From: Escherichia coli
GTDB taxonomy: Bacteria > Pseudomonadota > Gammaproteobacteria > Enterobacterales > Enterobacteriaceae
Direction: 5' to 3' (one strand)
Length of the DNA: 42,047 nt
Assembly: GCF_051903065.1 (NCBI RefSeq)
Contig: NZ_CP178441.1
The position numbers and the translations under genes were made by a program. The first letter of the stretch is position 1. Every line of letters begins with the position of its first letter. Positions 7,123 to 41,844 of this stretch are shown piece after piece. The notes beneath the pieces were generated by a model. It had not been told where the DNA came from, searched no databases, and was given only the letters and a program-made list of their open reading frames with translations.

Positions 7123-7907
7123 CAGATCACCGTTGCTAAATCAAGCTGTTCGAAAATAAGGGCGCGAACCTGTTTCAGACGCTGGCGAACCATAATAGAT
7201 AATGATTTATCTTCAATGGCCTCATCGAAGGTCTTGTAGTTTTCCAGCATGTCGGCAAAGTCCTGGCCGTGTAACTCCTTTTTGAGTGTAGGCAAACGGA
7301 TAAGCGCATCAACCTTGTCTTTATTCATCAGGTACGCTTCTGATTCTTCGAATGGCACTCCCTGATCGGATTCCACCGCGCCCCAATACGGGTTAAGCCA
7401 GACAACAAAACGGGTTTCTGACGGATACTGCTCCACCATGGCCTTGAACCCCTCGACGGTGTAATCATGTGCCTGCCCCCCCACAATCGAGATATGAATG
7501 ACAAGCTGTTTACCCATTTCATAAAGCAGGGCGGGGATTTGCTGGCTAATCATATAACTTGATAACGGAATAAATGACGGAGCGCCGTTATCGATAATAA
7601 CGTCCCTATCACCGGCTTCATCAATCCACTGGATGAGGGTATCCAGTTTGCGCTGATTAATTTCATCACCTTCCATGATGTTCAGCTGTCGGACGTTCAG
7701 TTTTTCATAATTAGAGAATGTAGGATTGAGCGGATCGGTATCGATGCACAGCGGTAGCTCACCTTTGCTAATCTTGTACATTGCCACCAAAGCGGTGCTA
7801 ACGGATTTACCACAACCACCTTTTCCTTGCTGGGCGCTGTGAACAGCATGGCGTACCGGCACTGATTCAGCTTCACTCTGTTTTTTATTTTTGTCTGCAG
7901 TAGGCAT
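7122..7907 (-). CDS. traL: TraL-like P-loop protein
   Basis: Nucleotide-binding motif GKGGCGKSVSTALVA. Position between traK and traM as in RP4. Confidence 0.55.
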   Translation of the reverse strand: MPTADKNKKQSEAESVPVRHAVHSAQQGKGGCGKSVSTALVAMYKISKGELPLCIDTDPLNPTFSNYEKLNVRQLNIMEGDEINQRKLDTLIQWIDEAGDRDVIIDNGAPSFIPLSSYMISQQIPALLYEMGKQLVIHISIVGGQAHDYTVEGFKAMVEQYPSETRFVVWLNPYWGAVESDQGVPFEESEAYLMNKDKVDALIRLPTLKKELHGQDFADMLENYKTFDEAIEDKSLSIMVRQRLKQVRALIFEQLDLATVI

Positions 7908-8341
7908 TAGTTAGTCCCCTTCTTTTTTCCAGGATTAAAATTGAAAGATGGCAGCTGACTGCCGGTATTCGTAGGCGGCTCTCTTTTGACCGGCGTTCTC
8001 TCCGGGATCACTGTTTCTTTCTTCGGTGACGGACCGGTTTGTTGGCTTTCTTTCTTTACCGTAGCTCCAGCAGGTGTACTTTCGCTAACAGCAGCTGCAC
8101 GTTTTCGTTCATCTATGTATCGCCGGACATGCCGACGAAAAGTTTCGTATGTGGTATTAACACGACCAGTTTCGTGCATGTGTTCCCATATCGTAGTAAG
8201 AGAGTAACCGGCTTCAATCGCATTTCTGACGTCTTCCCGGATTGCCAGGAAGACTACCCTCCCGCTGTTTGCACTCTTGCCGTTCAGCCCCTTTTTCTGC
8301 TTAACCCACTCCTGTAGGTCAGTTAAATAGTCTTTTCCCAT
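7907..8341 (-). CDS. traK: TraK-like oriT-binding relaxosome accessory protein (ORF track start 8455 is probably an extension through the promoter repeats)
   Basis: Transcribed divergently from traJ across oriT. Internal ATG at 8341 (MGKDYLTDL...) is preceded by repeat-rich non-coding-like sequence. Confidence 0.5.
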   Translation of the reverse strand: MGKDYLTDLQEWVKQKKGLNGKSANSGRVVFLAIREDVRNAIEAGYSLTTIWEHMHETGRVNTTYETFRRHVRRYIDERKRAAAVSESTPAGATVKKESQQTGPSPKKETVIPERTPVKREPPTNTGSQLPSFNFNPGKKKGTN

Positions 8342-8354
8342 CCGATAACCTGCG

Positions 8355-8396
8355 TGTGTATTTATGAGGTATTTCTGTGTATTTACGTGTGTATTT
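8355..8396. repeat. three direct repeats of TGTGTATTT (8355..8363, 8376..8384, 8388..8396) between traK and oriT
   Basis: Read directly from the sequence. Location matches the TraK-binding/promoter region of RP4 oriT. Confidence 0.5.
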
Positions 8397-8519
8397 GAGC
8401 AGGATAACAGTTGTAAACCGCCCGGAAAACCTTGGTTTTCCGGTGTATGTGGCATAGTAACGCCGTTTTTTCGTTATATCCACAGTTTTACATCAAAAAA
8501 CACGACATTCCACTTTTCT

Positions 8520-8600: not shown

Positions 8601-8688
8601 ACTTTACCTTCCCTTATTCGCAGCGGGGCTGCTCAACGGGAGTCCTGCTCTGCGAGGCTAATCGGCTACCGCCTATATGGAGATCGAG

Positions 8689-9042
8689 ATGACTGACAAT
8701 CAGACGCGGAAAAATTCCACACCGATCAAGGTTTACTGCTTCCCGGAAGAGAAGATGCAGATTGAAGCAAATGCCGCCGCTGCTGGTCTGAGTGTTGCGG
8801 CCTATTTGCGTAAAGTCGGTATGGGTTACGAAGTGGAGTCAATTGTTGATATAGAACAGGTCAAAGAGTTGAGTCGGGTTAATGGAGACTTGGGCCGACT
8901 TGGGGGGTTACTGAAGTTGTGGCTTTCCAATGACGAACGTACCCGGAATTTTTCGCCAGCGTTAATTAATACTCTGCTGGGAAAAATCGACGCCACGCAA
9001 AGCGCCCTTCGTGACGTAATGGACAGGATACTGAGTAAATGA
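8689..9042 (+). CDS. traJ: TraJ relaxosome accessory protein (ORF track start 8677)
   Basis: Strong similarity to recalled RP4 TraJ (PIKVYC..., GDLGRLGGLLKLWL). GGAG RBS before the ATG at 8689. Confidence 0.8.
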   Translation: MTDNQTRKNSTPIKVYCFPEEKMQIEANAAAAGLSVAAYLRKVGMGYEVESIVDIEQVKELSRVNGDLGRLGGLLKLWLSNDERTRNFSPALINTLLGKIDATQSALRDVMDRILSK

Positions 9043-11704: not shown

Positions 11705-11889
11705 AACAAAATTCCGAAGAATTAGGGCTGTTACTCGCCATGCTAAATACGGGGCATGGTGGTGCATTGGCAGGAAACCCAAACGAAGCCAGCCTGAATA
11801 CAGGCAAGGTTCAACAACTGTTAAACGTGATGGACGTCACCGCTGATGACTGGAACATAAAGGAGCAAGTCCATGAGAAAGCCAAATAA
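11701..11889 (+). CDS. small hypothetical ORF (62 aa) between traI and traG
   Basis: ATG overlaps the traI stop (ATGA). Overlaps the traG start by 17 nt. No recognisable motif. Confidence 0.3.
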   Translation: MKQNSEELGLLLAMLNTGHGGALAGNPNEASLNTGKVQQLLNVMDVTADDWNIKEQVHEKAK

Positions 11890-13816
11890 TGCCGTAGGGC
11901 CGCAGGTCCGTAATAAAAAGAAGGCAGCGAAAGGGAAACTGATCCCGGCGATGGCTATAACTTCACTGGCGGCTGGCATTCAGGCCGCCACACAGTATTT
12001 TGCTTACAGCTTTAATTATCAGGAACTGTTGGGGCCGAACTTTAATCACATCTATGCGCCGTGGTCCTATTTCAAATGGTATTCAGCATGGCATGAGCGC
12101 TTACCTGATGCGTTTTTTGCTGCTGGCAGTGTGGGGGCGGCGGTTGCTGCCGGTGGCCTAGTTCTGACCGCGCTGACAAGTATGATGAAAGCAAATTCAT
12201 CCAAGGCTAACGAATATCTTCATGGCTCTGCAAGATGGGCTGATGAGCAGGATATCAGAGATGCTGGTTTGCTGAATGATGAAGGTGTTTATGTTGGTGC
12301 GTGGGAAGACAAAAACGGTCAGTTGCGGTATCTGCGTCACAACGGCCCGGAACATGTTCTGACGTATGCACCTACCCGTTCTGGCAAAGGTGTCGGCCTG
12401 GTTGTTCCCACCTTGCTTTCCTGGAAACATTCAACGGTAGTGGCTGACCTTAAAGGTGAACTGTGGGCGATGACGGCGGGCTGGCGTAAAGAATATGCCA
12501 AGAATCTGTGTCTGAAATTCGAACCTGCTGCAGCTAATGGTTCCGTCGCCTGGAATCCTCTTGATGAAATCCGTGTGGGCACTGAAAACGAAGTTGGCGA
12601 CGTTCAGAATCTTGCCACGCTGATAGTTGACCCGGACGGTAAAGGACTAAATGACCACTGGCAGAAAACATCCCAGGCGCTTTTAGTCGGTGTGATCCTC
12701 CATGTACTTTACAAGCACAAAAATGAAGGTACGCCAGCAACGCTTCCGTATGTTGACTCCATCATGGCCGACCCGGAAAGAGGGGCAGGGGAATTGTGGA
12801 TGGAAATGACGCAATATAGTCACATAAATGGCGAGAATCATCCGGTGGTGGGGGCTGCCGGTCGTGACATGATGGACCGCCCGGAAGAAGAAGCCGGTTC
12901 CGTGCTGTCTACCGCAAAATCTTATCTCGCCCTTTTCCGTGATCCAGTTGTGGCTCGTAACGTCAGTGAGTCACATTTTAAAATAAAAGACCTGATGAAT
13001 CATGATGATCCGGTTTCGCTGTATATCGTTACTCAGCCTAATGATAAAGCTCGTCTGCGTCCGCTGGTACGAATCATGCTGAACATGATTGTTCGTTTGC
13101 TGGCTGACAAGATGGAATTTGAGCGTGTAGATAACAACCTTACGTTATGGCAGCGTTTTAAACAGGCGTTTGGTTTTTCAGTTCAGGGAACAAAAAGAGT
13201 ACAGACAAAGAAAACCTACAAACATCGTCTTCTGGGAATGATCGATGAGTTTCCAAGTCTGGGTAAACTCGAAATCATTCAGGAATCATTGGCTTTCCTT
13301 GCAGGTTATGGCATCAAGTTCTACCTCATCTGCCAGGATATTAATCAGTTGCGTAGCCGTGAAACAGGTTATGGGCCGGATGAAACAATAACCTCGAACT
13401 GCCATGTGCAGAACGCATATCCACCTAACCGTACTGAGACTGCAGAGCACCTTTCTAAGTTGACCGGACAAACAACGGTTATCAAAGAGCAGATCACAAC
13501 CAGCGGGAAACGTGCCAGTGCGATATTGGGTGGAGTATCCAAAACCATTCAGGAAGTACAGCGCCCACTTCTGACAGTGGATGAATGCCTGCGTATGCCA
13601 GGACCTAAGAAGAATGCTGAAGGTCTGATTACCGAGCGCGGCGACATGGTTATTTATGTGGCAGGTTTTCCGGCTATCTATGGAAAACAGCCGTTGTTTT
13701 TCCAAGATGAGATTTTCTCGCTTCGTGCTTCTGTACCTGCACCAAAAGTTACCGATCGGATTCGAGCTGTAGCTGCCGCGAATGATGACGCCAGTAATGA
13801 GGCTATCGCAATATGA
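11873..13816 (+). CDS. traG: TraG type IV coupling protein (VirD4 family)
   Basis: N-terminus matches recalled RP4 TraG (NNAVGPQ..., LHGSARWAD). Walker A APTRSGKGVG. Confidence 0.85.
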   Translation: MRKPNNAVGPQVRNKKKAAKGKLIPAMAITSLAAGIQAATQYFAYSFNYQELLGPNFNHIYAPWSYFKWYSAWHERLPDAFFAAGSVGAAVAAGGLVLTALTSMMKANSSKANEYLHGSARWADEQDIRDAGLLNDEGVYVGAWEDKNGQLRYLRHNGPEHVLTYAPTRSGKGVGLVVPTLLSWKHSTVVADLKGELWAMTAGWRKEYAKNLCLKFEPAAANGSVAWNPLDEIRVGTENEVGDVQNLATLIVDPDGKGLNDHWQKTSQALLVGVILHVLYKHKNEGTPATLPYVDSIMADPERGAGELWMEMTQYSHINGENHPVVGAAGRDMMDRPEEEAGSVLSTAKSYLALFRDPVVARNVSESHFKIKDLMNHDDPVSLYIVTQPNDKARLRPLVRIMLNMIVRLLADKMEFERVDNNLTLWQRFKQAFGFSVQGTKRVQTKKTYKHRLLGMIDEFPSLGKLEIIQESLAFLAGYGIKFYLICQDINQLRSRETGYGPDETITSNCHVQNAYPPNRTETAEHLSKLTGQTTVIKEQITTSGKRASAILGGVSKTIQEVQRPLLTVDECLRMPGPKKNAEGLITERGDMVIYVAGFPAIYGKQPLFFQDEIFSLRASVPAPKVTDRIRAVAAANDDASNEAIAI

Positions 13817-14346
13817 AAAAAATGACCCGCTATGCCGCCATTGGTGTTATTTCGGCTTCATTGATTGGTGCAGTTGTGTGTTGCTTTGGATATGCCGCCG
13901 GGTTACGCATCAATACCACGAAAAGTATCCCTGTTGGCTTGTACAAAATCAGCCAGAAAGCGCCAGAGAAGGGCGACTATGTAATTTTCTGCCCGCCTGA
14001 AAAGGCTATTTTCTCACTGGCACAGAAGCGTGGTTACATCGGCAGCGGCTTTTGTCCAGGGGGGTATGGCGAGATGATGAAGCGGATTTTAGCGGCTAAA
14101 GGTGATGAAGTTGCTTTTCGTGATGATGGTGTTTACGTCAACGGACAGTTATTGCCTTACAGCAAGCCGTTAAGTGTTGATCCGGGCGGGCGTAAACTGC
14201 CCGCCATTCGTGAAGTATACACGTTGGGTAAATCAGAACTGTTGCTGATGACTGACCGCAGCGCATCTTCATTTGACGGGAGATATTTCGGCGCGGTCAC
14301 AAAGTCACAGATTATTTCTACGATATTACCTGTAATGACCTGGTAA
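13813..14346 (+). CDS. traF: TraF pilin-maturation peptidase (signal peptidase-like)
   Basis: Signal peptide and S26-like motif SFDGRYFG. Synteny after traG. Confidence 0.75.
   Translation: MKKMTRYAAIGVISASLIGAVVCCFGYAAGLRINTTKSIPVGLYKISQKAPEKGDYVIFCPPEKAIFSLAQKRGYIGSGFCPGGYGEMMKRILAAKGDEVAFRDDGVYVNGQLLPYSKPLSVDPGGRKLPAIREVYTLGKSELLLMTDRSASSFDGRYFGAVTKSQIISTILPVMTW
14088..14100. promoter_or_regulatory. KorB-type operator TTTAGCGGCTAAA inside the traF coding sequence
   Basis: Perfect OB consensus located within the CDS (encodes RILAAKG). Confidence 0.55.
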
Positions 14347-14365
14347 AAAGAATAGGGGAATTGAT

Positions 14366-14695
14366 ATGGGGTTATTTCATAAGAGTGCGGAGAAGGAGAA
14401 GTTAGAGGCACTGGAAAAGGTTATTTCAAAAACCAATCGTGGCATTTTTAAACGAATTGATGAAAATCGCGAGCTACTCGAATTGTTATATGAAAAAGCA
14501 CCAGAGCTTATGGATAAATGTTTCTGGATTCGATGCTGGATTGAATCTCAGGATGAATTTTTAAGTAAGTTGGCAGAGATTTCTGGCGTGGAAAATCGAA
14601 CCTATAACCTTACTCCTGATAAACCTTATCCACGTCCTTTTCCGAAAAAACCAGATTGCCTTATGGATTCTTCGAATGAGGATAATGCCGTATGA
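14366..14695 (+). CDS. hypothetical protein (109 aa), inserted between traF and the topoisomerase gene
   Basis: Good RBS (AGGGGA) before the ATG. AT-rich codon usage unlike the flanking transfer genes. Confidence 0.5.
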   Translation: MGLFHKSAEKEKLEALEKVISKTNRGIFKRIDENRELLELLYEKAPELMDKCFWIRCWIESQDEFLSKLAEISGVENRTYNLTPDKPYPRPFPKKPDCLMDSSNEDNAV

Positions 14696-14874
14696 ATACT
14701 CTCATTATGTATGCTTTGAAAACTATTCGTTATCGCAGCCTCATTGCTGAGGCACTTTTGGGTAATTTATCAAAGTGTGAAGATACAAAAAGGCGAAGTG
14801 AAATCATCACGGTTTGTCATCGCTCCGCTGATGTCCTGATAGTGAAGAAATTAAAGTGCTTATGGCAGAAATAG
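14692..14874 (+). CDS. hypothetical small basic protein (60 aa), translationally coupled to the upstream ORF
   Basis: ATGA start/stop overlap with 14366..14695. Confidence 0.45.
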   Translation: MNTLIMYALKTIRYRSLIAEALLGNLSKCEDTKRRSEIITVCHRSADVLIVKKLKCLWQK

Positions 14875-14884
14875 GGAGTGTCAA

Positions 14885-16915
14885 ATGAGAGTATTCATTG
14901 CAGAAAAACCAAGTGTTGCGAAAGCCATCGCTGAAATATTAGGCGCAACCAATAAAAAAGACGGTTACATTGAGTGCGGCAGTGACTATGTGACCTGGTG
15001 TTTTGGTCATATGTTTGAGCAGGCTGAACCTGATGAATATACACCAGACAATGTGCCTCGTAATGAAAGCGGTAAAAAAATCTGGCGAGAAGATGAACTG
15101 CCAATTATCCCCGAAAAATGGATTATTAATCCTCGTGAAGATGCTGAGAAACAGCTGAAAACCATCCGGCATTTGGTTGAGCGAGCTGACACGATTGTAA
15201 ATGCTGGCGATCCAGATCGCGAGGGGCAGTTACTGGTTGATGAAATCCTTGATGACATGGGATGTACTAAACCGGTTCTGCGTTACTGGTGTAATGCGAA
15301 TGATACGGTAAGTGTCACAAGGGCGTTGAAAGGACTTGAGAACAACGATAAATATGTAAATTTTGGACGTGCAGCTCTTGCGCGTGGTCGGGCTGATTGG
15401 TTGGTTGGAATGAACCTTTCAAGAGGATTCACGTTGTCGGCAGCGCGTGGTGGCTCGCGTGTTCTGTTGACGGTCGGGCGAGTTCAGACACCAACGCTGG
15501 CACTTGTTGTTGCCCGCGATCTCGAAATTGAAAACTTCAAACCAATTCCTTATCACAATATTAAAGCTGTCTTTAAACATGACAAAGGAGCGTTTGTTGC
15601 GGCATGGCAGGCCAGAGAAGATCAGCCAGGGCTTGATTCAGAGGGAAGGCTTATTGACACTAAAGAAGCTGATAAGCTAGTAGCGGCTTTAACCGGAAAA
15701 TCCGGTAAGGTTGTTGAATATAAGCAAGAGCCAAAGAAAAAATATCATCCAAAAGCCTATTCTCTTGGCAGTATCACCGCTGTTGCTTCAAGTAAGTTTG
15801 GTTATTCTGGTGAGCAAGTGCTGGCTATATGCCAGTCTCTTTATGAAACGCATAAACTTACCAGTTATCCACGTTCTGATAGTTCTTATTTGCCTGAATC
15901 TCAACACGCAGATGCACCTCAAATTCTGGATTCTCTTCGGGTTACTTATCCGGGAATAGCTGCTCTAATCGATAAGGCTGATCCAAAAGTAAAATCAAAA
16001 ACTTTTGATGACTCTAAGGTTACAGCGCATCACGGCATTATCCCAACGATGCACAAAGGTAACGTTGAAAGGCTTACGCCAGAAGAGCGTAATATTTACG
16101 ACCTTATCGTAAGAACATACCTTGCTCAATTTTATCCAGTACATGAATATAAAGCGACATCAATTATTATTGATGTTAATGGTGAAACATTTGGGGCCGG
16201 TGGCCGCGTAACGACTAAAAATGGATGGAAGGATGTTTATTCAGATGGAGAGGATGAAGAAGAAAAAGAAAATGAGTCTGAACAGACTCTTCCATCAATG
16301 AGAAATGGTGACGAAATTATTTGTGCTCAGGCACAGCGGCAGGATGCTAAAACTAAAGCTCCGCGTCGTTTTAATGACGGTACACTCAACACTGCAATGG
16401 AAAATATTCATAAGTATGTTGAAGACCCGGCTCAGAAAAAATTACTGCGGGAAGGTGATGGTATTGGCACATCAGCTACCCGCGCCACAATAGTTGCTGA
16501 TTTAAAGAAACGTGGTTTTATTGAAAACAAAGGCAAAGACATTATCAGTACCAAGCTGGGAAGGGGGCTGATAGCCATTCTGCCAGAACTGGTTAAAAGC
16601 CCGGTAATGACAGCCATCAACGAACGTATGTTACTGGAAATAGAGCAGGGGAAACGTGACGTTGATTCTTTTGTGAAGATTCAGGAAAAATTTGTACGAG
16701 AGCAGATTAAGGTTATTAATGCCGGAGCTATCAAAGTTGCCGGTGGTGTGCAAATTTCTGACAAGTACAAATGCAAGGTATGTGGTAAAGGACTTATTCG
16801 TCGTCCGTCCAAAAAATCCGGTCACTTCTGGTCTTGCAGTGGTTATCCCAATTGTAAAGAGTCGTACCCAGATATTAAAGGTAGTCCAAACTATAACCCC
16901 ATAAAACGCGCTTAA
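14885..16915 (+). CDS. traE: DNA topoisomerase III (TraE-like)
   Basis: Toprim N-terminus MRVFIAEKPSVAKAIA, topoisomerase IA core, and a C-terminal zinc ribbon (CKVCGK...CSGYPNC). RP4 TraE is a topoisomerase III homolog. Confidence 0.85.
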   Translation: MRVFIAEKPSVAKAIAEILGATNKKDGYIECGSDYVTWCFGHMFEQAEPDEYTPDNVPRNESGKKIWREDELPIIPEKWIINPREDAEKQLKTIRHLVERADTIVNAGDPDREGQLLVDEILDDMGCTKPVLRYWCNANDTVSVTRALKGLENNDKYVNFGRAALARGRADWLVGMNLSRGFTLSAARGGSRVLLTVGRVQTPTLALVVARDLEIENFKPIPYHNIKAVFKHDKGAFVAAWQAREDQPGLDSEGRLIDTKEADKLVAALTGKSGKVVEYKQEPKKKYHPKAYSLGSITAVASSKFGYSGEQVLAICQSLYETHKLTSYPRSDSSYLPESQHADAPQILDSLRVTYPGIAALIDKADPKVKSKTFDDSKVTAHHGIIPTMHKGNVERLTPEERNIYDLIVRTYLAQFYPVHEYKATSIIIDVNGETFGAGGRVTTKNGWKDVYSDGEDEEEKENESEQTLPSMRNGDEIICAQAQRQDAKTKAPRRFNDGTLNTAMENIHKYVEDPAQKKLLREGDGIGTSATRATIVADLKKRGFIENKGKDIISTKLGRGLIAILPELVKSPVMTAINERMLLEIEQGKRDVDSFVKIQEKFVREQIKVINAGAIKVAGGVQISDKYKCKVCGKGLIRRPSKKSGHFWSCSGYPNCKESYPDIKGSPNYNPIKRA

Positions 16916-16930
16916 TTGTAGAGGCACTAT

Positions 16931-17116
16931 ATGACTGATACTAATGCAGTAATTCGCCCTGATGTTAACGACGCAATACAGGAAAAATATCGCGATCTGA
17001 TGACACCGGGATATGTAGTCGAATTTTCACCCGATGAGGCTGATCTTGTGGGGGCATTCGAAGATGATGCGCTGAATGTACGTGACGCATACGAAAGCGC
17101 TTTTGATGCGGAGTAA
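16931..17116 (+). CDS. small strongly acidic protein (61 aa)
   Basis: RBS GAGG before the ATG. Very high Asp/Glu content. Lies immediately upstream of the ArdC-like gene. Confidence 0.45.
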   Translation: MTDTNAVIRPDVNDAIQEKYRDLMTPGYVVEFSPDEADLVGAFEDDALNVRDAYESAFDAE

Positions 17117-17121
17117 GGGCC

Positions 17122-19239
17122 ATGGCAGAAGCTAAAGCGAAAAAACCATTTTATGAGATTGTGGCTGAAAACCTGATAGCCCAGCTTAAAGAGGGGACTG
17201 CTCCATGGCAGAAACCATGGAACCCCGGCGCTCCTGGTGTCGCATTGCCTATGAACCCTACGACGGGTAAACGTTATAAAGGCATTAACGCTATTCACCT
17301 TATGGCGCAGGGTTATAGCGATCAACGTTGGATGACCTATAAGCAGGCGACGGCTGCAAATGCGCAGGTAAGGAGAGGCGAAAAAGGCACGCCGATCCAA
17401 TACTGGAAATTTACTGAGGAACGCATCAAACGCAACGATGATGGTAGCGTTGTGCTCGATAAAGACGATAAACCGGTAAAAGAAACTGTCCAACTGGAGC
17501 GACCGAAGGTATTTAACGCAGTTGTGTTTAATGCGGAGCAGATTGACGGTCTACCGCCGATGGCCGTTCGCCAAGATAAGAGCTGGAACAGTATTGAACG
17601 TGCTGAATCTATTCTCGAAGCCTCTGGCGCGAAAATCTCTCATGACCAGGTTGACCGGGCTTTTTACCGTATGTCTACAGACAGCATTCATTTGCCGCAG
17701 CAGGCTTCCTTTCCAAGTGCTGATCGTTACTATGCCACTGCACTTCATGAATTGAGCCACTGGACAGGTCACGCATCGCGTCTTGATCGTGACCTGTCTC
17801 ATCCTTTTGGAAGTGAAGGTTACGCCAGAGAAGAACTACGCGCAGAGATTGCCAGTATGATCATTGGCGATGAACTGGGGATAGGTCATGACCCTTCCCA
17901 GCATGTTGCCTATGTAAAATCTTGGATTAAAGCCTTACAGGATGATCCGCTGGAAATTTTCCGTGCAGCAGCTGATGCTGAAAAAATCCAGGGGTTCGTG
18001 TTGGGCCTTGAACAACAGAGAATACAGGAACAACCGGTAACTCTGGAAAGAGAGCAGCGCGAAAAAGAGCATAATGAGGTAATGGCTGAGGTACAGCGGC
18101 TGACTAACCCGCAGATTTTCGATGCGGAAACAGCTCAACTCTATCATTTCACATTCATGACACTGGAGCAGACAGCTGAGGAAGCTGGTTACGTTACCTA
18201 TTACAGCCGTGGCACTGGTGAGCTGGGCGAAGAAACTATTCGGGTTAATTACGAAGACAGTAATGGAAATACTATTCCTGTTCATACTGATGTGGTTGGG
18301 CGCGGAAAAGCATTGACATATATCGGTGATGAGCGTGTCCCCGGAACGGGATTTTCATCCGATAATGAATGGCAAAGCAATGCTCTTAAAACCGCTTTCG
18401 CCAGCATGGATAACAACCTAACTTTAGTCGCTAAAAAAGTTCATAGTCAGATTGAAAATATCAGTGGAGACCCGCGAGAGTTACCGCAGGATGTTAAGTT
18501 TCCTAAAAACTGGTGGCCTAATTCCAGTTTTCTGGCGTCGACCCCAAGTGTGGAGAACTCAAAAGCAGCTGCAGAGGCTGATATGACCACTAAAACTGAA
18601 ACGTCTATTACATCAGCGCAGCAGCGCCAGTATCGTGCAGAGAAATTTATTCTTTCGAATCTCGATAGTGGTCTTTCTAAGCACGTTCAGAATATGAACC
18701 GTCGCCAGCTTACGTTGTCACGAAACGTTCTCTATGATGCTCAAAATAGCAATCAGGATAGTGATTTTTGGCAGCGTAACAAGGAATTTCATTCTTCGTT
18801 CAGTCAAAACTGGAATGAGGCTCAGGACAAGATCAAGAGCGCATACCGTGAGATTGATTTTGCATTATCACTTCTACCAGAGCCGAAATATAACATTGTG
18901 GAAAATCCTGGTCAGAATGAGCATGTGAATATAATCATGCAGACCAACAGTGCAGTTAAGGCGCTGGCCGCTGTTAACGAAGGGGATAATCGTTCAATTT
19001 ATGACTCACGTCTCATCAATAACGGTAAGGTCGATCTGAATGACCTGCAGAACAATTTTTATCAAACACTTGAAGCAGAAAAAGCAGCCTTAAAGCAAGG
19101 TATTATCAAGCCTGATGATGAGATTAGCGTGCTCCCACCAAGAGAAGCACAGGAATGGTATCAAGACCGTGTTGAAGGCTTGACGTATAGGAAATTGAAA
19201 AACCAGTCGATACCATTGTCCACGCCTTATGCCACGTGA
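17122..19239 (+). CDS. ardC: ArdC-like antirestriction protein (N-terminal ssDNA-binding domain plus HExxH metalloprotease) with a roughly 400-aa C-terminal extension
   Basis: N-terminal ...APWQKPW... ArdC-type segment and HExxH motif ALHELSHWTGH. Total length 705 aa versus about 300 aa for canonical ArdC. Confidence 0.7.
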   Translation: MAEAKAKKPFYEIVAENLIAQLKEGTAPWQKPWNPGAPGVALPMNPTTGKRYKGINAIHLMAQGYSDQRWMTYKQATAANAQVRRGEKGTPIQYWKFTEERIKRNDDGSVVLDKDDKPVKETVQLERPKVFNAVVFNAEQIDGLPPMAVRQDKSWNSIERAESILEASGAKISHDQVDRAFYRMSTDSIHLPQQASFPSADRYYATALHELSHWTGHASRLDRDLSHPFGSEGYAREELRAEIASMIIGDELGIGHDPSQHVAYVKSWIKALQDDPLEIFRAAADAEKIQGFVLGLEQQRIQEQPVTLEREQREKEHNEVMAEVQRLTNPQIFDAETAQLYHFTFMTLEQTAEEAGYVTYYSRGTGELGEETIRVNYEDSNGNTIPVHTDVVGRGKALTYIGDERVPGTGFSSDNEWQSNALKTAFASMDNNLTLVAKKVHSQIENISGDPRELPQDVKFPKNWWPNSSFLASTPSVENSKAAAEADMTTKTETSITSAQQRQYRAEKFILSNLDSGLSKHVQNMNRRQLTLSRNVLYDAQNSNQDSDFWQRNKEFHSSFSQNWNEAQDKIKSAYREIDFALSLLPEPKYNIVENPGQNEHVNIIMQTNSAVKALAAVNEGDNRSIYDSRLINNGKVDLNDLQNNFYQTLEAEKAALKQGIIKPDDEISVLPPREAQEWYQDRVEGLTYRKLKNQSIPLSTPYAT

Positions 19240-19503
19240 GCCTTTCTGCTTTTCCCACCACTCCGGTGGTTTCCCTCTCTGTATGGTCGATTTTTATACC
19301 GTAACAGGCTGTTTTTTATACTTTCACCGATTCCCGGGCACACTTAGCCTGTGTCAGGCCGGCATATACCTCAGTAGACTGATATCCCGCGCGTTTTTCT
19401 TCAGCCCTGATACATTCAGCCCCGCAATGGCCCGGCGGTATACCATCCGGCAGCCACACAGCACGCATTCGAACGGGTCACGACTCAGGAACTGTTTCAC
19501 CAT

Positions 19504-21291
19504 TTGTGCATAGCACACTTTCGCCACTGGTTCATGGAGGACGCTGACAGCCCGGATGAACTGAAAAGCGCTCTGGATGCGCTTGGCCCAGAACCGGGAG
19601 ATAATGAGGCTGTTTTCCTTGGTGAAGATGGAGGGCGAATTCTTCCAGAATTCAGTCTGAACGTTACGCAGGAAAATACTCCAATCAATGTCCCCTACAA
19701 AGAACGCAATGAAGCTAAAGCGCTTGGGGCAAAATGGGATCGAACCGAACAGACCTGGTTTGTACCAAAAGGTGTATCTCTGGATAAATTTGCAAAATGG
19801 GTTGGTGGGCCAACTGCAGAAAACAATTCATCTGTCGTATCTGTGAAAGAAGTAACGCCAAAAGTGGGTGAGCGTCAGAATCTGGCTGTCCCTTATAAAG
19901 ACCGCGCAGAAGCTAAAGCAGCTGGTGCTAAATGGGACAAAGAGAAAAAAACTTGGTATGCCGAAGCTGGGGCAGATATGCAAAAACTGGCGAAGTGGAA
20001 ACCGGAAAATGTGGTGATCGAACAGTCACCGGCCATGACGCTAAAGGAGGAAGTAGAAACCGCGCTGAAAGATATTGGGTGCATCCTTGATGCCGATACT
20101 GACAAAGGACAGAAACATCCAATTATGGATGGTAAGAAGCATCGGATCACGGTAGAGGGAGACAAGAAAGGGGAAAAGTCAGGTTTTTATATCATCTATA
20201 CTGACGGCCATCCTGCGGGCTTCATGCAGAACAACCGCACCAAAGAAGAGTTACGTTGGTCTTCCAAGGGAAATGTGATGTCCGACGAAGAAAAAGCGCT
20301 CCTGCGGGCGCAGGCTGCTCAGAAACAGGCCGAAAAAGCGGCACAGCAGCAAAAAGACCATGAGTCCTCTGCAAAGCGTGTTCAAAAGCAGCTCGCTAAA
20401 CTCAATGAACCTCAGCAGCAAACTGCTTACCTGAAGAAGAAAGGGCTGCAGGTACATAAAGGTGTGTTCACTGATAAGGACGGACAGAAAACCTTTATTC
20501 CTGCTTATGATGTCCATGGTAAGCAATGGACTATGCAGTACATCAACGAGGACGGCACAAAACGTTTTGCCAAAAATGCTCGCAAAGAGGGATGTTTCCA
20601 TGTCATTGGCGGGCTGGATGCGCTTAAAAAATCTCCGGTGTTGATTGTGGCCGAAGGTTACGCAACGGCAGGGAGCATCACAGAGGCTACTAATATACCA
20701 ACGGTCGCCGCCTTCGATTCAGGTAATCTGGAATCTGTCGCGAAAACGCTTAAAGAAGCCTACCCCGATAAGCCAATCATCATTGCCGGTGATGATGATA
20801 TTTCTCAGTCATGCAAAATGAAGGTGAAGGATAAAGCCAGTGTAAACGTCGGCAGGGAAAAAGCGCTGGAAACAGCGAAAGCTGTCGGCGGTGTGGCTGT
20901 GTTTCCAGTTTTTGCTAAAGGTGAATTACCTGGGAAAGACGAACTCAGCCAGATTAAACCGGCGGCGTATCTTGCACACCAGACCGCCTCGCGCAAACTG
21001 GAGGCCCATACGAGCGGTGATAAGCCACTCTCGGATGCCGAAGTGAAGGTTCTGCAGGCAGCACAGCTATCGGAAAAGCAGCTTGATATTATTCGCCGCG
21101 CTGATCGTTACACTGACTTTAACGATCTGGCCGTAAATAGTTCTCTTGGCCGGGAAGGTGTGGCGATGCAGTTGAAAGCCGTCATTGCTGACCAGCTGAA
21201 TAAAAAACAGCAGCAGTCACAGGTCCAGATCGAAGAGAAGAAACTCGTTCAGGAAAAAGAGAAAAAACGGACCATTCGCCACGCTATGTAA
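19504..21291 (+). CDS. traC: TraC-like DNA primase (Toprim domain); start uncertain (alternative ATG at 19534)
   Basis: Toprim segment VLIVAEGYATAGS...IIIAGDDD. Two N-terminal repeats of the ...AK..GAKWD...K.W motif. Confidence 0.75.
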   Translation: MCIAHFRHWFMEDADSPDELKSALDALGPEPGDNEAVFLGEDGGRILPEFSLNVTQENTPINVPYKERNEAKALGAKWDRTEQTWFVPKGVSLDKFAKWVGGPTAENNSSVVSVKEVTPKVGERQNLAVPYKDRAEAKAAGAKWDKEKKTWYAEAGADMQKLAKWKPENVVIEQSPAMTLKEEVETALKDIGCILDADTDKGQKHPIMDGKKHRITVEGDKKGEKSGFYIIYTDGHPAGFMQNNRTKEELRWSSKGNVMSDEEKALLRAQAAQKQAEKAAQQQKDHESSAKRVQKQLAKLNEPQQQTAYLKKKGLQVHKGVFTDKDGQKTFIPAYDVHGKQWTMQYINEDGTKRFAKNARKEGCFHVIGGLDALKKSPVLIVAEGYATAGSITEATNIPTVAAFDSGNLESVAKTLKEAYPDKPIIIAGDDDISQSCKMKVKDKASVNVGREKALETAKAVGGVAVFPVFAKGELPGKDELSQIKPAAYLAHQTASRKLEAHTSGDKPLSDAEVKVLQAAQLSEKQLDIIRRADRYTDFNDLAVNSSLGREGVAMQLKAVIADQLNKKQQQSQVQIEEKKLVQEKEKKRTIRHAM

Positions 21292-21386
21292 GATGTTCTG
21301 ACTCTGGCCTGCCTGCGGGCCAGTAAATTGCGCTCGCTTTAATGGTAAAATTAAATGCATCAAAAGATTACTTTTAAGGACAGAAA

Positions 21387-21878
21387 ATGAAAAAGATATA
21401 TACCGCAGCGTTTTTATTAATTTTTACCCCTTTAACTTATGCCACCGGATTTCCATGTGCTGGCTGTGGAATTGTTGATAATATGATAAAAGGAAAGGCT
21501 GATGAAACACCAATAATGGTGATGCTAGATACTCCGATTGAAAAAAATGACATTACGCCGAAGGAAATAAACTTAATATCACACGACGATAAATGTCTTT
21601 ACTCTGGTGTACTTACACAGACTCTTTCGAAAAATAAAGACAGCCGTATTATTGATGTCAATAAAAAGGTTTGCGGCTCGAATACTGAAAAGGTGTCTTA
21701 CTCCGTTTTGAGCATTAGTTCCAGCGAGCAATACAGCAAAGGCACACCGCTAAAGCTGTATCATGTCGCCGTAATGACTTCGGCAGGTCCGTTGTTCAGC
21801 GCTGATGTAATGAGCGAAATGATTAAAGATATTGCAGATGCAGTAGAACAGGCTAAGGCAAAAGGACTGACTAAGTGA
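21387..21878 (+). CDS. secreted/periplasmic hypothetical protein
   Basis: N-terminal signal peptide MKKIYTAAFLLIFTPLTYA. AT-rich. RBS AAGGA. Confidence 0.55.
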   Translation: MKKIYTAAFLLIFTPLTYATGFPCAGCGIVDNMIKGKADETPIMVMLDTPIEKNDITPKEINLISHDDKCLYSGVLTQTLSKNKDSRIIDVNKKVCGSNTEKVSYSVLSISSSEQYSKGTPLKLYHVAVMTSAGPLFSADVMSEMIKDIADAVEQAKAKGLTK

Positions 21879-22090
21879 GTCATTCAGATAAAAGGTCCGA
21901 GTTTTTGTATATGTTCCGGCGTTGCAGAACGATAGATACAGTTGAACGCCTTTATGAACATAAGCGGGACATTGTTTCTTCTGAACATCTTAGCGATTTT
22001 CTGAGTGCTTATGATCATCGCAAGGCAGAAATTTATCATGGAAAAATCTGGGATAAGGTTCCTGCGTCTGCCTGGCGGAATGTGAAATAA
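21875..22090 (+). CDS. hypothetical protein (71 aa), coupled to the upstream secreted protein gene
   Basis: GTGA start/stop overlap. Followed by a strong hairpin terminator. Confidence 0.4.
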   Translation: MSHSDKRSEFLYMFRRCRTIDTVERLYEHKRDIVSSEHLSDFLSAYDHRKAEIYHGKIWDKVPASAWRNVK

Positions 22091-41376: not shown

Positions 41377-41844
41377 ATGAATAATGAAGTTATCGTTACT
41401 GCTCGTAAACTTACAGATTATGAAGAACGCCTGATGTTTATGCCGAAATTCTTCGGCCAATATTGGCTTTTTGTGGAAAACCACACTTATAACTGGATGC
41501 GTAAATTAAGTCCTGAAAATAAAAGCCAATATTTAAGTAGTGCGCTGGATAAAATTGAAGCCCATTACGATGGTGGTGAGTGGGATTTTTATGAACTTTC
41601 AAATGGTGGTTATTTTATGGCACCAAACAGCCGTGAACATTACCGTATTTCTGTCCAGGGTAATTACTTTGACGGTTTGTTAAGCGCAGAAGCTGCAGGT
41701 ATGGTGGCAACCAGTTTTGTGCTGGCCCAGCTTGCTAATTCTAATCTGCCATTTTCAGAAAAATGCTGTGCTTATTATCATCAGCTGTTTGATTACGCCA
41801 GCGGGCATCAAGAATATGCGCAGTTCCGTGCTGCCATCGATTAA
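41377..41844 (+). CDS. klcA: KlcA (ArdB/KlcA-family antirestriction protein); ORF track start 41299 is an extension through the promoter
   Basis: Similarity to recalled RK2 KlcA (...YELSNGGYFMAP..., AEAAGMVATSFVLAQLA). GGAGA RBS before the ATG at 41377. Confidence 0.8.
   Translation: MNNEVIVTARKLTDYEERLMFMPKFFGQYWLFVENHTYNWMRKLSPENKSQYLSSALDKIEAHYDGGEWDFYELSNGGYFMAPNSREHYRISVQGNYFDGLLSAEAAGMVATSFVLAQLANSNLPFSEKCCAYYHQLFDYASGHQEYAQFRAAID

Follow-up and report, generated by a model that had tools for sequence, protein, structure and literature searches.

TraD, a small acidic protein encoded directly upstream of traC on an IncP-1-like Escherichia coli plasmid, is a candidate partner of TraC

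The window, that is, the whole 42,047-nt stretch of E. coli DNA analysed here, carries a run of conjugation genes in the order traI-traG-traF-orf109-traE-traD-traC, with oriT between traK and traJ. Our subject is traD, the 61-aa ORF between traE and traC (Table 1), which lies 8 kb into the traJ-side operon. Its stop codon (17114-17116) is separated from the traC ATG at 17122 by 5 nt, and the traC Shine-Dalgarno site is found inside traD, a layout that suggests translational coupling of the two genes. Promoter and terminator signals at the traE-traD-traC junctions do not rise above chance, and no Rfam match was found in 13000-22000. An antisense ORF of 188 aa (16927-17493, minus strand) matches no family and was treated as a shadow ORF.

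Table 1. Features of the traD locus and its surroundings (positions in the window)
Feature	Position	Strand	Remarks
traK	7907-8455	minus	
traJ	8677-9042		
traG (coupling protein)	11873-13816		TIGR02759 match
traE (DNA topoisomerase III homolog)	14885..16915	+	NCBIfam NF005829 DNA topoisomerase 3, E=5.8e-216
Shine-Dalgarno AGAGG of traD	16920..16924	+	6 nt 5' of ATG, read from sequence
traD ORF	16931..17116	+	ATG start, 61 aa, MTDTNAVIRPDVNDAIQEKYRDLMTPGYVVEFSPDEADLVGAFEDDALNVRDAYESAFDAE
Shine-Dalgarno GGAG of traC	17110..17113	+	within last traD codons, read from sequence
traC 5' fragment	17122..19239	+	705-aa ORF, ends 17 codons inside IS1294 insert
ArdC-like module of TraC (aa 1-310; ArdC-N ssDNA-binding and zincin metallopeptidase domains)	17122..18051	+	Foldseek, phrog_7245
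IS1294 fragment (IS91 family), 347 bp	19184..19530		boundaries approximate within a few bases
traC 3' part (DUF5710-type repeats and Toprim primase domain)	19531..21291	+	phrog_2249 DNA primase, 2.5e-58

The 61-aa protein is 100% identical to QMM50934.1, a 'conjugal transfer protein TraD', and the identical protein is annotated as TraD on 29 plasmid records; IncP-1-like E. coli and Salmonella plasmids of ~41 kb carry such proteins. TraD of the IncP-1beta plasmid pJP4 shares 53% identity with it over residues 13-59 (tblastn, E=1e-6), tblastn with the window TraD finds matches on 372 plasmid records, and the close homologs all bear the precomputed Pfam assignment PF27712. Judged by these matches, the ORF encodes the IncP-type TraD of conjugative plasmids. 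TraD is a long-annotated name without a characterised function: we found no phenotype for an IncP traD in the literature, where the RP4 tables list no function and the RA3 papers say only 'putatively Dtr'. The initial annotation counted it against its own proposal if the protein were the conserved TraD homolog with a transfer-only role; the homology holds, and the transfer-only role is at most putative. When the protein was searched directly, NCBIfam and PADLOC returned 0 matches each, PHROGs returned one (E=0.29), and the sole Pfam-A match, DUF7443 (E=0.009), was judged compositional. The Ti-plasmid TraD family PF06412 is not matched in the same Pfam-A scan. Two further proteins have only the name in common with the window TraD: TraD of the F plasmid, a VirD4-type ATPase of roughly 700 aa, and TraD of pKM101, a VirB6 homolog. 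In the window the role of F TraD falls to TraG, and it is TraG, not the 61-aa ORF, that TIGR02759 (TraD_Ftype) matches.

The protein was originally singled out as small and strongly acidic, and this description is borne out. It contains 16 Asp/Glu versus 4 Lys/Arg residues, with a calculated pI of 4.05 and a net charge of -12.5 at pH 7, and it ranks first in acidity among the 142 ORFs of 50 aa or more in the six frames of the window: its (D+E-K-R)/length of +0.197 compares with a mean of -0.057 (sd 0.069). The AlphaFold2 (AF2) model of TraD alone has three short helices and a pLDDT of 77. Searched with Foldseek, this model has no fold match to DNA mimics and no meaningful hit either in the PDB (best E 7.8) or among the viral folds of BFVD (best E 3). 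A TraD profile run against all PDB chain sequences gave 0 matches at E<=10.

A phmmer search of 1.84 billion cluster representatives recovers 367 matches at E<=1e-3, mostly proteins of 55-130 aa that have in common a core of ~45 aa. Some proteins of 1262-2077 aa that ranked high were discarded as spurious. Most of the false-positive matches are WD40-repeat proteins in which '...VAFSPDG...' was aligned to 'EFSPDEADLVGAF'; one (P0013) is a different repeat protein. Across 140 family representatives the median net charge is -15 and the highest pI is 5.3. The homologs span elements of Gamma-, Beta-, Alpha- and Epsilonproteobacteria (Legionella, for example), and none was found in 50,697 phage records. 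This is a large family of small, uniformly acidic proteins, found only in conjugative elements of the MOBP/MPF_T type.

The TraD core follows the pattern …K..D…PG…EF.P.EA…GAF.EDAL…DA…S..D, and 14 positions are near-invariant: K19, D22, P26, G27, P34, E36, A37, G41, A42, F43, E45, A47, A53 and D59. Only four of these 14 are Asp or Glu, the remainder being largely Lys, Pro, Gly, Ala and Phe. Because the near-invariant residues are mostly non-acidic, conservation of the core points to an interface with a specific protein and not to charge mimicry of a general kind. The same pattern bears on whether the ORF is a gene at all. Its shortness and the lack of a published function after about 30 years of IncP work are what one might expect of a chance ORF, or of a sequence that merely separates traE from traC; yet it has its own Shine-Dalgarno site, hundreds of homologs with near-invariant residues, and is retained when the neighbouring genes change. 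The 61-aa ORF is a real gene, and judged by the conservation pattern the chance-ORF reading is effectively refuted.

TraD proteins of the IncP-1 (RP4/RK2, R751, pJP4) and IncU (RA3, pMBUI7) plasmids have a homologous acidic core, and their genes likewise lie immediately before traC or traC3 in the Dtr operon. The IncP-1 alpha and beta versions are longer (128-133 aa) and carry a further conserved segment at the C-terminus (...PAFLDDEGP...PPFITTTNARELY...), which the window TraD lacks. The latter is a minimal, 'core-only' version of 61 aa; the IncU and Campylobacter versions are 46-48 aa long.

The gene downstream of traD had been called ardC, and this is correct only in part: the next ORF opens with an ArdC-like module but makes up only the 5' part of a traC gene that encodes 1272 aa when intact. 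In Foldseek the module matches R388 ArdC (6I89/6SNA) with E=1e-18, 35% identity and a TM score of 0.78-0.80, and phrog_7245, 'anti-restriction protein', matches TraC residues 5-314 (2.7e-78). In CP057780.1 the uninterrupted traC is a single 1272-aa CDS consisting of the ArdC-like module, a spacer and the primase, and in blastn the 3' part of the window traC is collinear with the 3' end of that gene. The fragment in between is 100% identical to IS1294/IS91-family transposase genes on many plasmids. Each of the 25 best plasmid matches listed covers 94% of the query in 2-3 pieces, and none of these 25 spans the insert point in one piece. The 'ardC' of the window is a traC split by the IS1294 fragment: the gene is in two parts because the fragment has inserted there, and the fragment is not part of the TraD system. 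The likeness to ArdC of R388/pSa (IncW), which extends over about the first 300 aa of TraC, also has its limits. ArdC of the R388 type is a stand-alone protein of 297 aa that works when expressed in the recipient; the module in the window forms the N-terminal 'header' of a primase that is 1272 aa long and is produced in the donor.

To follow traD through other genomes we used a degenerate DNA pattern for P-x-E-A-xxx-G-A-F-x-E-D-A, which located candidate loci in 100,044 species genomes; 116 of the 120 encode a TraD-like ORF. The next gene on the same strand encodes an ArdC-N/zincin protein in 95 of the 107 loci with downstream sequence, so the clustering with an ArdC-like gene noted in the initial annotation is real and evolutionarily conserved. 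Beyond these 95, two loci have a small ORF intervening and three have TraC directly upstream. The gap between the genes at paired loci ranges from -125 to +55 nt as bounded by the longest ORFs, the values for the window (5 nt) and for pJP4 (3 nt) having been read directly. On the upstream side the neighbours vary: TraF at 57 of 106 loci, TraE at 24 and others at 25. A pairing of TraD with the topoisomerase III TraE was considered and rejected, TraE being upstream in only the 24 loci.

The surrounding order also differs between elements. It is traG-traF-traE-traD-traC in pJP4, ssb-traD(46 aa)-traC-virD4 in Campylobacter coli, traC4(primase)-traD-traC3(ArdC-like) in the IncU-type pMBUI7, primase-TraD-ArdC-like at locus L012 and virD4-LPD7-traD in Piscirickettsia. 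The traD-traC pairing survives operon rearrangement. A few loci depart from it: at L107 and L052 TraD is followed by a methylase/SNF2-helicase polyvalent protein without detectable ArdC-N, and two Legionella loci have TraD without a nearby TraC. ArdC-like genes are found on 3139 plasmids versus 372 for TraD, a count that is comparable to the size of the subclade with at least 60% identity to the window TraC (524 records). Among ArdC-like genes, this TraC-type subclade alone has TraD at its side.

Taken together, we favour a reading in which TraD is a co-translated partner of TraC, acting on it like VirE1 on VirE2, and assign it a probability of about 0.45. TraD would be made together with TraC in the donor, as the traC ribosome-binding site inside traD and the 5-nt gap would allow, and would bind the ArdC-like N-terminal module. 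There its acidic/aromatic motif TPGY-x-x-EF-x-P-x-EA-x-x-GAF-x-ED-AL may occupy the basic ssDNA-binding surface, keeping TraC soluble and/or off donor ssDNA, and/or ready to be passed on to TraG, the coupling protein, and to the type IV secretion system. In a variant of this scheme, TraD would keep the zincin domain inactive until transfer. TraD would thus be an ssDNA mimic for its own partner and not a duplex-DNA mimic for host restriction enzymes.

Several observations are consistent with such a contact. ArdC-N (residues 1-150) has a pI of 9.5 versus 4.05 for TraD, a complementarity of charge, and the structure of R388 ArdC has a positively charged groove beside its protease domain (bioRxiv 10.1101/756429). 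We joined TraD through a 25-residue GS linker to TraC(1-305) and modelled the fusion with AF2 using 33 paired sequences. The pTM is 0.85, and TraD residues 11-60 reach a pLDDT of ~89 compared with ~83 alone, a modest gain of ~7 points; residues 30-31 turn strand, with no other TraD strand residues to pair with. The fused model lends weak support to a predicted contact between TraD and the ArdC-like module. When TraD and TraC columns were compared by MI/APC covariation (86 pairs, Neff about 40), terminal and gap columns dominated, and no signal between the two proteins could be used.

VirE1 is a single long helix that occupies the ssDNA-binding region of VirE2; the PDB contains it as part of the VirE1-VirE2 complex. 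VirE1 prevents VirE2 oligomerisation and aggregation (PMC3297438). The likeness to TraD is in the way of working: an acidic protein of ~60 aa whose gene is directly upstream of, and apparently coupled to, the gene for a T4SS-transported ssDNA-binding protein. The folds are unlike, TraD being predicted to form three short helices, and we rejected membership of TraD in the VirE1 family after the profile search across the PDB showed no sequence similarity between the two.

The initial annotation had proposed another role, that of a DNA-mimic anti-restriction protein. Spelled out on the model of ArdA and Ocr, the carboxylates of TraD would block type I (or other) restriction in the recipient alongside the ArdC-like module, with TraD maybe carried over together with TraC. 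The resemblance that prompts it is clear: like ArdA and Ocr, TraD is small, rich in Asp and Glu and very low in pI (about -0.2 charge per residue), and the acidity is kept family-wide. Moreover, traD adjoins a module whose R388 homolog counters HsdRMS, and TraC1 is transferred, so a bound partner could in principle travel along. However, by homology with RP4, traD lies in the trailing Tra1 operon and not in the leading region. In RP4, traJIHGFEDCBA makes up the trailing region, which is the last into the recipient, and zygotic induction of traD is 1.1-fold, versus 10-16x for leading-region genes (PMC7314908). The plasmid also already has klcA, a KlcA/ArdB-type anti-restriction gene (phrog_10132, 3e-25), in its leading part. 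TraD gave no match to ArdA, Ocr or other mimic families in Pfam-A, PDB sequences, PDB folds or viral folds, and it differs from ArdA and Ocr in being absent from the phage records, tied to one partner gene and conserved mostly at non-acidic positions. At 35-45 aa (the minimal member, from Campylobacter, has 46 aa in all), the conserved core is short compared with mimics that cover the DNA site of a type I enzyme. Finally, at the two loci examined (an IncFIB/MOBC plasmid and pSGI4), stand-alone ardC genes, of a kind known or expected to work in the recipient, have no TraD next to them. We consider mimicry directed at restriction improbable; TraD more likely serves TraC than mimics DNA.

Given its setting, TraD could also be a Dtr accessory factor for TraG or the relaxosome, for example an acidic adaptor of the coupling protein (T4CP) or a stabiliser of TraI/TraJ, for which the acidic RP4 TraH provides a precedent. 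The gene lies in the Tra1/Dtr operon, typically as traG-traF-traD; a T4CP gene (traG/virD4) is nearly always within one to three genes of traD, including in Campylobacter and Piscirickettsia; and the labels given by depositors ('DNA processing protein') and authors ('putatively Dtr') point in the same direction. Yet the immediate adjacency and the frame-abutting coupling are with TraC and not with TraG or TraI, no TraD was seen, in an unsystematic look, in MOBP/MPF_T systems that have TraG and TraI but no TraC-type gene, and in the fused model TraD is predicted, at reasonable confidence, to lie against the ArdC-like module. We regard this role as unlikely. If TraC is the partner, TraD might instead serve its primase part or the inter-domain region, regulating the Toprim domain or controlling a TraC2-like product. 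The primase domain is strongly basic (pI 9.25, charge +14.7), and in IncU-type plasmids and at L012 traD sits between the primase gene and the ArdC-like gene, adjoining both. Co-occurrence cannot separate the ArdC-like module from the primase domain as the partner, since one ORF encodes both in 64 of the 71 complete TraC-type genes. Speaking against the primase part, TraD is kept beside ArdC-like genes whose loci lack any primase (L082, L040), traD precedes the ArdC-like gene and is frame-coupled to it where the arrangement is split, and modelling with the ArdC-like module alone already raises the predicted confidence of TraD. A primase-directed role accordingly seems quite improbable to us.

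Returning to TraD as a partner of the ArdC-like module, a broader and more tentative version can be formulated, which we consider possible but doubtful. TraD would be the founding member of a widespread group of conjugative 'header chaperones', in which a minimal acidic/aromatic, ssDNA-mimicking peptide caps, or sits on the ArdC-N/'protein transport' domain in the donor, is needed for stability and T4SS export of TraC-type proteins and is stripped off at the coupling protein. In RP4 it is the N-terminal (ArdC-like) part of TraC1 alone that is needed for transfer to recipients (PMC8744291). The logic would resemble that of VirE1/VirE2 but would have evolved independently, and would operate in hundreds of IncP-, IncU-, Legionella-, Neisseria- and Campylobacter-type elements.

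For the plasmid at hand, traD is an ordinary, known backbone gene of an IncP-1-like plasmid, and the analysis is a caution against applying the label of DNA mimic to each small acidic ORF on a plasmid. For the family the implications are wider. Few proteins have been shown to accompany DNA in conjugation; TraC-type primases with an ArdC-like head belong to them, and they assist broad-host-range resistance plasmids in becoming established in new hosts. IncP TraD, a function-less name since the 1990s, is now linked, in elements of very diverse kinds, to the ArdC-like head of TraC.

The 61-aa ORF, as the initial annotation described it, is open on the plus strand and strongly acidic: the product has 16 Asp/Glu against four Lys/Arg (computed pI 4.05, net charge about -12) and tops the window in acidity: of 142 ORFs with 50 aa or more across all six frames it ranks first, ~3.7 sd above the mean. 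The GGAG of the next gene, traC, lies within the final codons of the ORF, and this layout suggests translational coupling. No promoter or terminator signals above chance were found between the genes flanking the ORF, and Rfam families gave no match in the region. An antisense ORF that covers it has no family match and is most likely the shadow of two conserved sense-strand genes.

Features of the window around traD and related loci
Feature	Position	Strand	Remarks
109-aa ORF between traF and traE	14366-14695	+	unmatched
traD ORF	16931..17116	+	ATG start, 61 aa
AGAGG ribosome-binding site of traD	6 nt 5' of ATG	+	read from sequence
traD stop codon	17114-17116	+	ATG of traC 5 nt downstream
Antisense ORF, 188 aa	16927-17493	-	covers all of traD and the traC start
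IS1294 (IS91-family) fragment, 347 bp	about 19184-19530, approximate boundaries		inside traC; 100% identical to part of IS1294
klcA, KlcA/ArdB-type anti-restriction gene	41377-41844	+	phrog_10132, E=3e-25; 'antirestriction protein' in CP057780.1

Conjugative plasmids of ~41 kb from E. coli, Salmonella and Shigella, such as CP057780.1 (MOBP, MPF_T), match the region at 100% identity, and an identical 61-aa product, QMM50934.1, is named 'conjugal transfer protein TraD' in GenBank. The window backbone is IncP-1-like (trb, trfA, ssb, klcA, klcB, kleE, korA/incC/korB-like, traO/N and traM-L-K), with the order traJ-traI-traG-traF-orf109-traE-traD-traC beyond oriT. The IncP-1 plasmid pJP4, in contrast, has no gene between traF and traE; the 109-aa ORF found there in the window has no match in NCBIfam, PHROGs or PADLOC, and the only homolog seen at the equivalent position was in a Zophobihabitans entericus plasmid locus (L038).

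A word-indexed search returned only close relatives (70-100% identity), all with precomputed Pfam PF27712 and several named TraD. An exhaustive phmmer search of 1.84 billion representatives yielded 367 matches at E<=1e-3 which, once repeat-protein false positives (mostly WD40) are removed, are proteins of 45-135 aa. The rejected long WD40-repeat proteins (P0015, P0042, P0063, P0067, P0091 and P0154; eukaryote-like and bacterial) reach E=1e-9 to 1e-6 with the 61-aa query solely through the likeness of their repeat motif, VAFSPDG(A/S), to EFSPDEADLVGAF; significant-looking artefacts of this sort can arise with short acidic queries. Family members share a ~45-aa core, with near-invariant K19, D22, P26, G27, P34, E36, A37, G41, A42, F43, E45, A47, A53 and D59, and all are acidic (median net charge -15, maximum pI 5.3). 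By tblastn the family occurs on 372 plasmids (325 typed as conjugative), including classical IncP-1 plasmids such as pJP4, whose 129-aa TraD (L123, 4917-5306) is encoded between traE and traC, with 3 nt separating it from traC. The family search, the shared core and the pJP4 relative together identify the window protein as an IncP-type TraD in core-only form. In the IncP-1 alpha/beta proteins (128-133 aa; pJP4 and loci L015, L085, L088, L091, L095 and L046) a second conserved stretch (…PAFLDDEGP…PPFITTTNARELYDLRPGET…) follows at the C-terminal end; it is absent from the window protein and from the Campylobacter, IncU and Legionella versions of 46-54 aa. The F coupling protein TraD and the Ti TraD (PF06412) are unrelated.

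At a Massilia glaciei locus (L002, 6281-7156, plus strand) the TraD core is fused in frame to ~170 N-terminal and ~30 C-terminal residues of a topoisomerase III, which looks like an internal traE deletion joining a traE remnant to traD. The 248-aa protein P0062 has an SLT lytic-transglycosylase domain followed by a C-terminal TraD core; since the Campylobacter plasmid (L125) has an SLT gene two genes 5' of traD, the arrangement may not be genuine but an artefact of gene fusion or of a frameshift.

The ORF had been placed immediately upstream of ardC. An ArdC homolog does adjoin it; the gene, however, is traC, not a stand-alone ardC, and forms a single 1272-aa CDS in CP057780.1. In the window the IS1294 fragment splits traC into a 705-aa 5' ORF and a 595-aa 3' ORF bearing the primase domain, and GTTC, the usual IS91-family target, adjoins its right end (19530-19533). 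In all 25 of the best 25 plasmid matches listed, the alignment breaks at this fragment and takes 2-3 pieces to cover 94% of the query. The first ~300 residues of TraC are a genuine ArdC homolog: Foldseek aligns them with R388 ArdC (6I89; E=1e-18, 35% identity, TM 0.78), and the N-terminal part matches phrog_7245, 'anti-restriction protein', at 2.7e-78. The ArdC-N part is basic (computed pI 9.5); in the R388 structure a positively charged groove between two domains is the likely ssDNA site (bioRxiv 10.1101/756429).

To follow traD across genomes we searched one-genome-per-species contigs with a degenerate DNA pattern for P-x-E-A-xxx-G-A-F-x-E-D-A, which gave at least 120 loci, from Legionella, Nitrosomonas, Burkholderiales, Methylobacter, Shewanella, Rhizobium, Sphingomonas and others; a TraD-like ORF is present in 116 of the 120 matches listed. 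Where at least 300 nt lie downstream, the next same-strand gene is of the ArdC-N/zincin (TraC) type in 95/107 of the loci listed, with a longest ORF that adjoins or overlaps traD (-125 to +55 nt). In two more of the listed loci a small ORF is all that separates the genes, and in three TraC is immediately upstream. The upstream neighbour is inconstant among the listed loci (TraF 57, TraE 24, others 25), so TraD travels with TraC rather than with the topoisomerase. Even where the operon is completely reshuffled, the pair stays together: ssb-traD(46 aa)-traC-virD4 in Campylobacter coli, traE-traD(60 aa)-traC on a Neisseria gonorrhoeae plasmid, traC4(primase)-traD(48 aa)-traC3(ArdC-like) on IncU-type pMBUI7, and primase-TraD-ArdC-like at locus L012. 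ArdC-like modules occur on 3139 plasmids against 372 for TraD, and the subclade at least 60% identical to this TraC comprises 524 records, a number near that of TraD. No TraD lies beside stand-alone ardC on an IncFIB/MOBC plasmid or pSGI4, even with all HMM filters off, and the 50,697 phage records contain no TraD homolog.

In two Methylobacter-type loci (L107, 1-3283, and L052, 1-2537, both minus strand) TraD is followed instead by a very large polyvalent protein with an N6-adenine methylase motif region, an SNF2-like helicase and a distinct ~100-aa N-terminus, in which ArdC-N is not detectable; the alternatives are that TraD works with different types of polyvalent 'header' or that another gene has taken the partner's place. 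In two IncP-1-like loci (L108, 1-600, minus strand; L080, 3405-4097, plus strand) a ~200-230-aa ORF with an HEVxGH zincin-like motif follows TraD; it does not match the window ArdC-N or zincin segments and may represent a TraC N-terminus that has diverged or been rearranged.

AF2 (138-sequence alignment) predicts TraD with moderate confidence (pLDDT 77) as three short helices (10-23, 34-39 and 50-57); the model had no meaningful match in PDB or BFVD, nor the family profile among PDB sequences. We also modelled TraD fused to TraC through a 25-residue GS linker, using 33 natural pairs and judging by pTM, pLDDT and secondary structure alone. The pTM is 0.85, with a linker pLDDT of about 40, and the TraD core rises from about 83 alone to about 89. 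Residues 30-31 are assigned to a strand in the fused model; nothing else in TraD is, so whatever they hydrogen-bond with must belong to the TraC part. Contact is thereby suggested but not proven. For covariation analysis, Neff was about 40, too few effective sequences.

We tentatively propose, with a probability of roughly 0.45, that TraD is a partner of the ArdC-like head of TraC. It would be co-made with TraC in the donor, bind the head, and act as dedicated chaperone, ssDNA-site cap or export adaptor. RP4 TraC1 moves to recipients and requires its N-terminal ArdC-like part (PMC8744291). The pair would be analogous, not homologous, to the Agrobacterium chaperone and ssDNA-binding effector VirE1/VirE2 (VirE1: PMC3297438). 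TraD could conceivably pair with the primase part, which we consider improbable; 64 of 71 complete TraC-type genes also hold a primase, so co-occurrence cannot separate the two. A T4CP gene is nearly always near traD, and a Dtr or T4CP accessory role independent of TraC is unlikely, though less so. That a gene with this distribution is a chance ORF has a vanishingly small likelihood.

The initial annotation proposed the protein as a candidate DNA-mimic anti-restriction factor, its position suggesting an anti-defence cluster. Adjacency to an ArdC-like function is real; the mimic itself, backed by composition and nothing further, is doubtful, if somewhat less so than the primase reading. The conserved core is very short, its near-invariant residues are mostly non-acidic, and there is no similarity to known mimics. 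Moreover, traD belongs to the trailing region (the traJ...traA operon) and RP4 traD is not zygotically induced (PMC7314908), while klcA, the plasmid's more conventional anti-restriction candidate, is already in the leading part, on the traK side of oriT. The initial annotation would have counted a conserved TraD homolog with a transfer-only role as refutation: the protein is that homolog, but the transfer-only role is likewise not established.

Since annotations exist for both the gene and its family, the entity is already known. What may be new is the chaperone hypothesis and the family-wide statement that TraC proteins with an ArdC-N head have TraD as their obligate companion upstream: outside the older subscription RP4 literature, our search found no paper stating either idea. 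RP4 and RA3 literature assigns TraD no function, and it goes unmentioned in the survey of polyvalent proteins in which ArdC-N was defined as an N-terminal 'header'. An ordinary backbone gene thereby gains a testable hypothesis for a function left blank for ~30 years.
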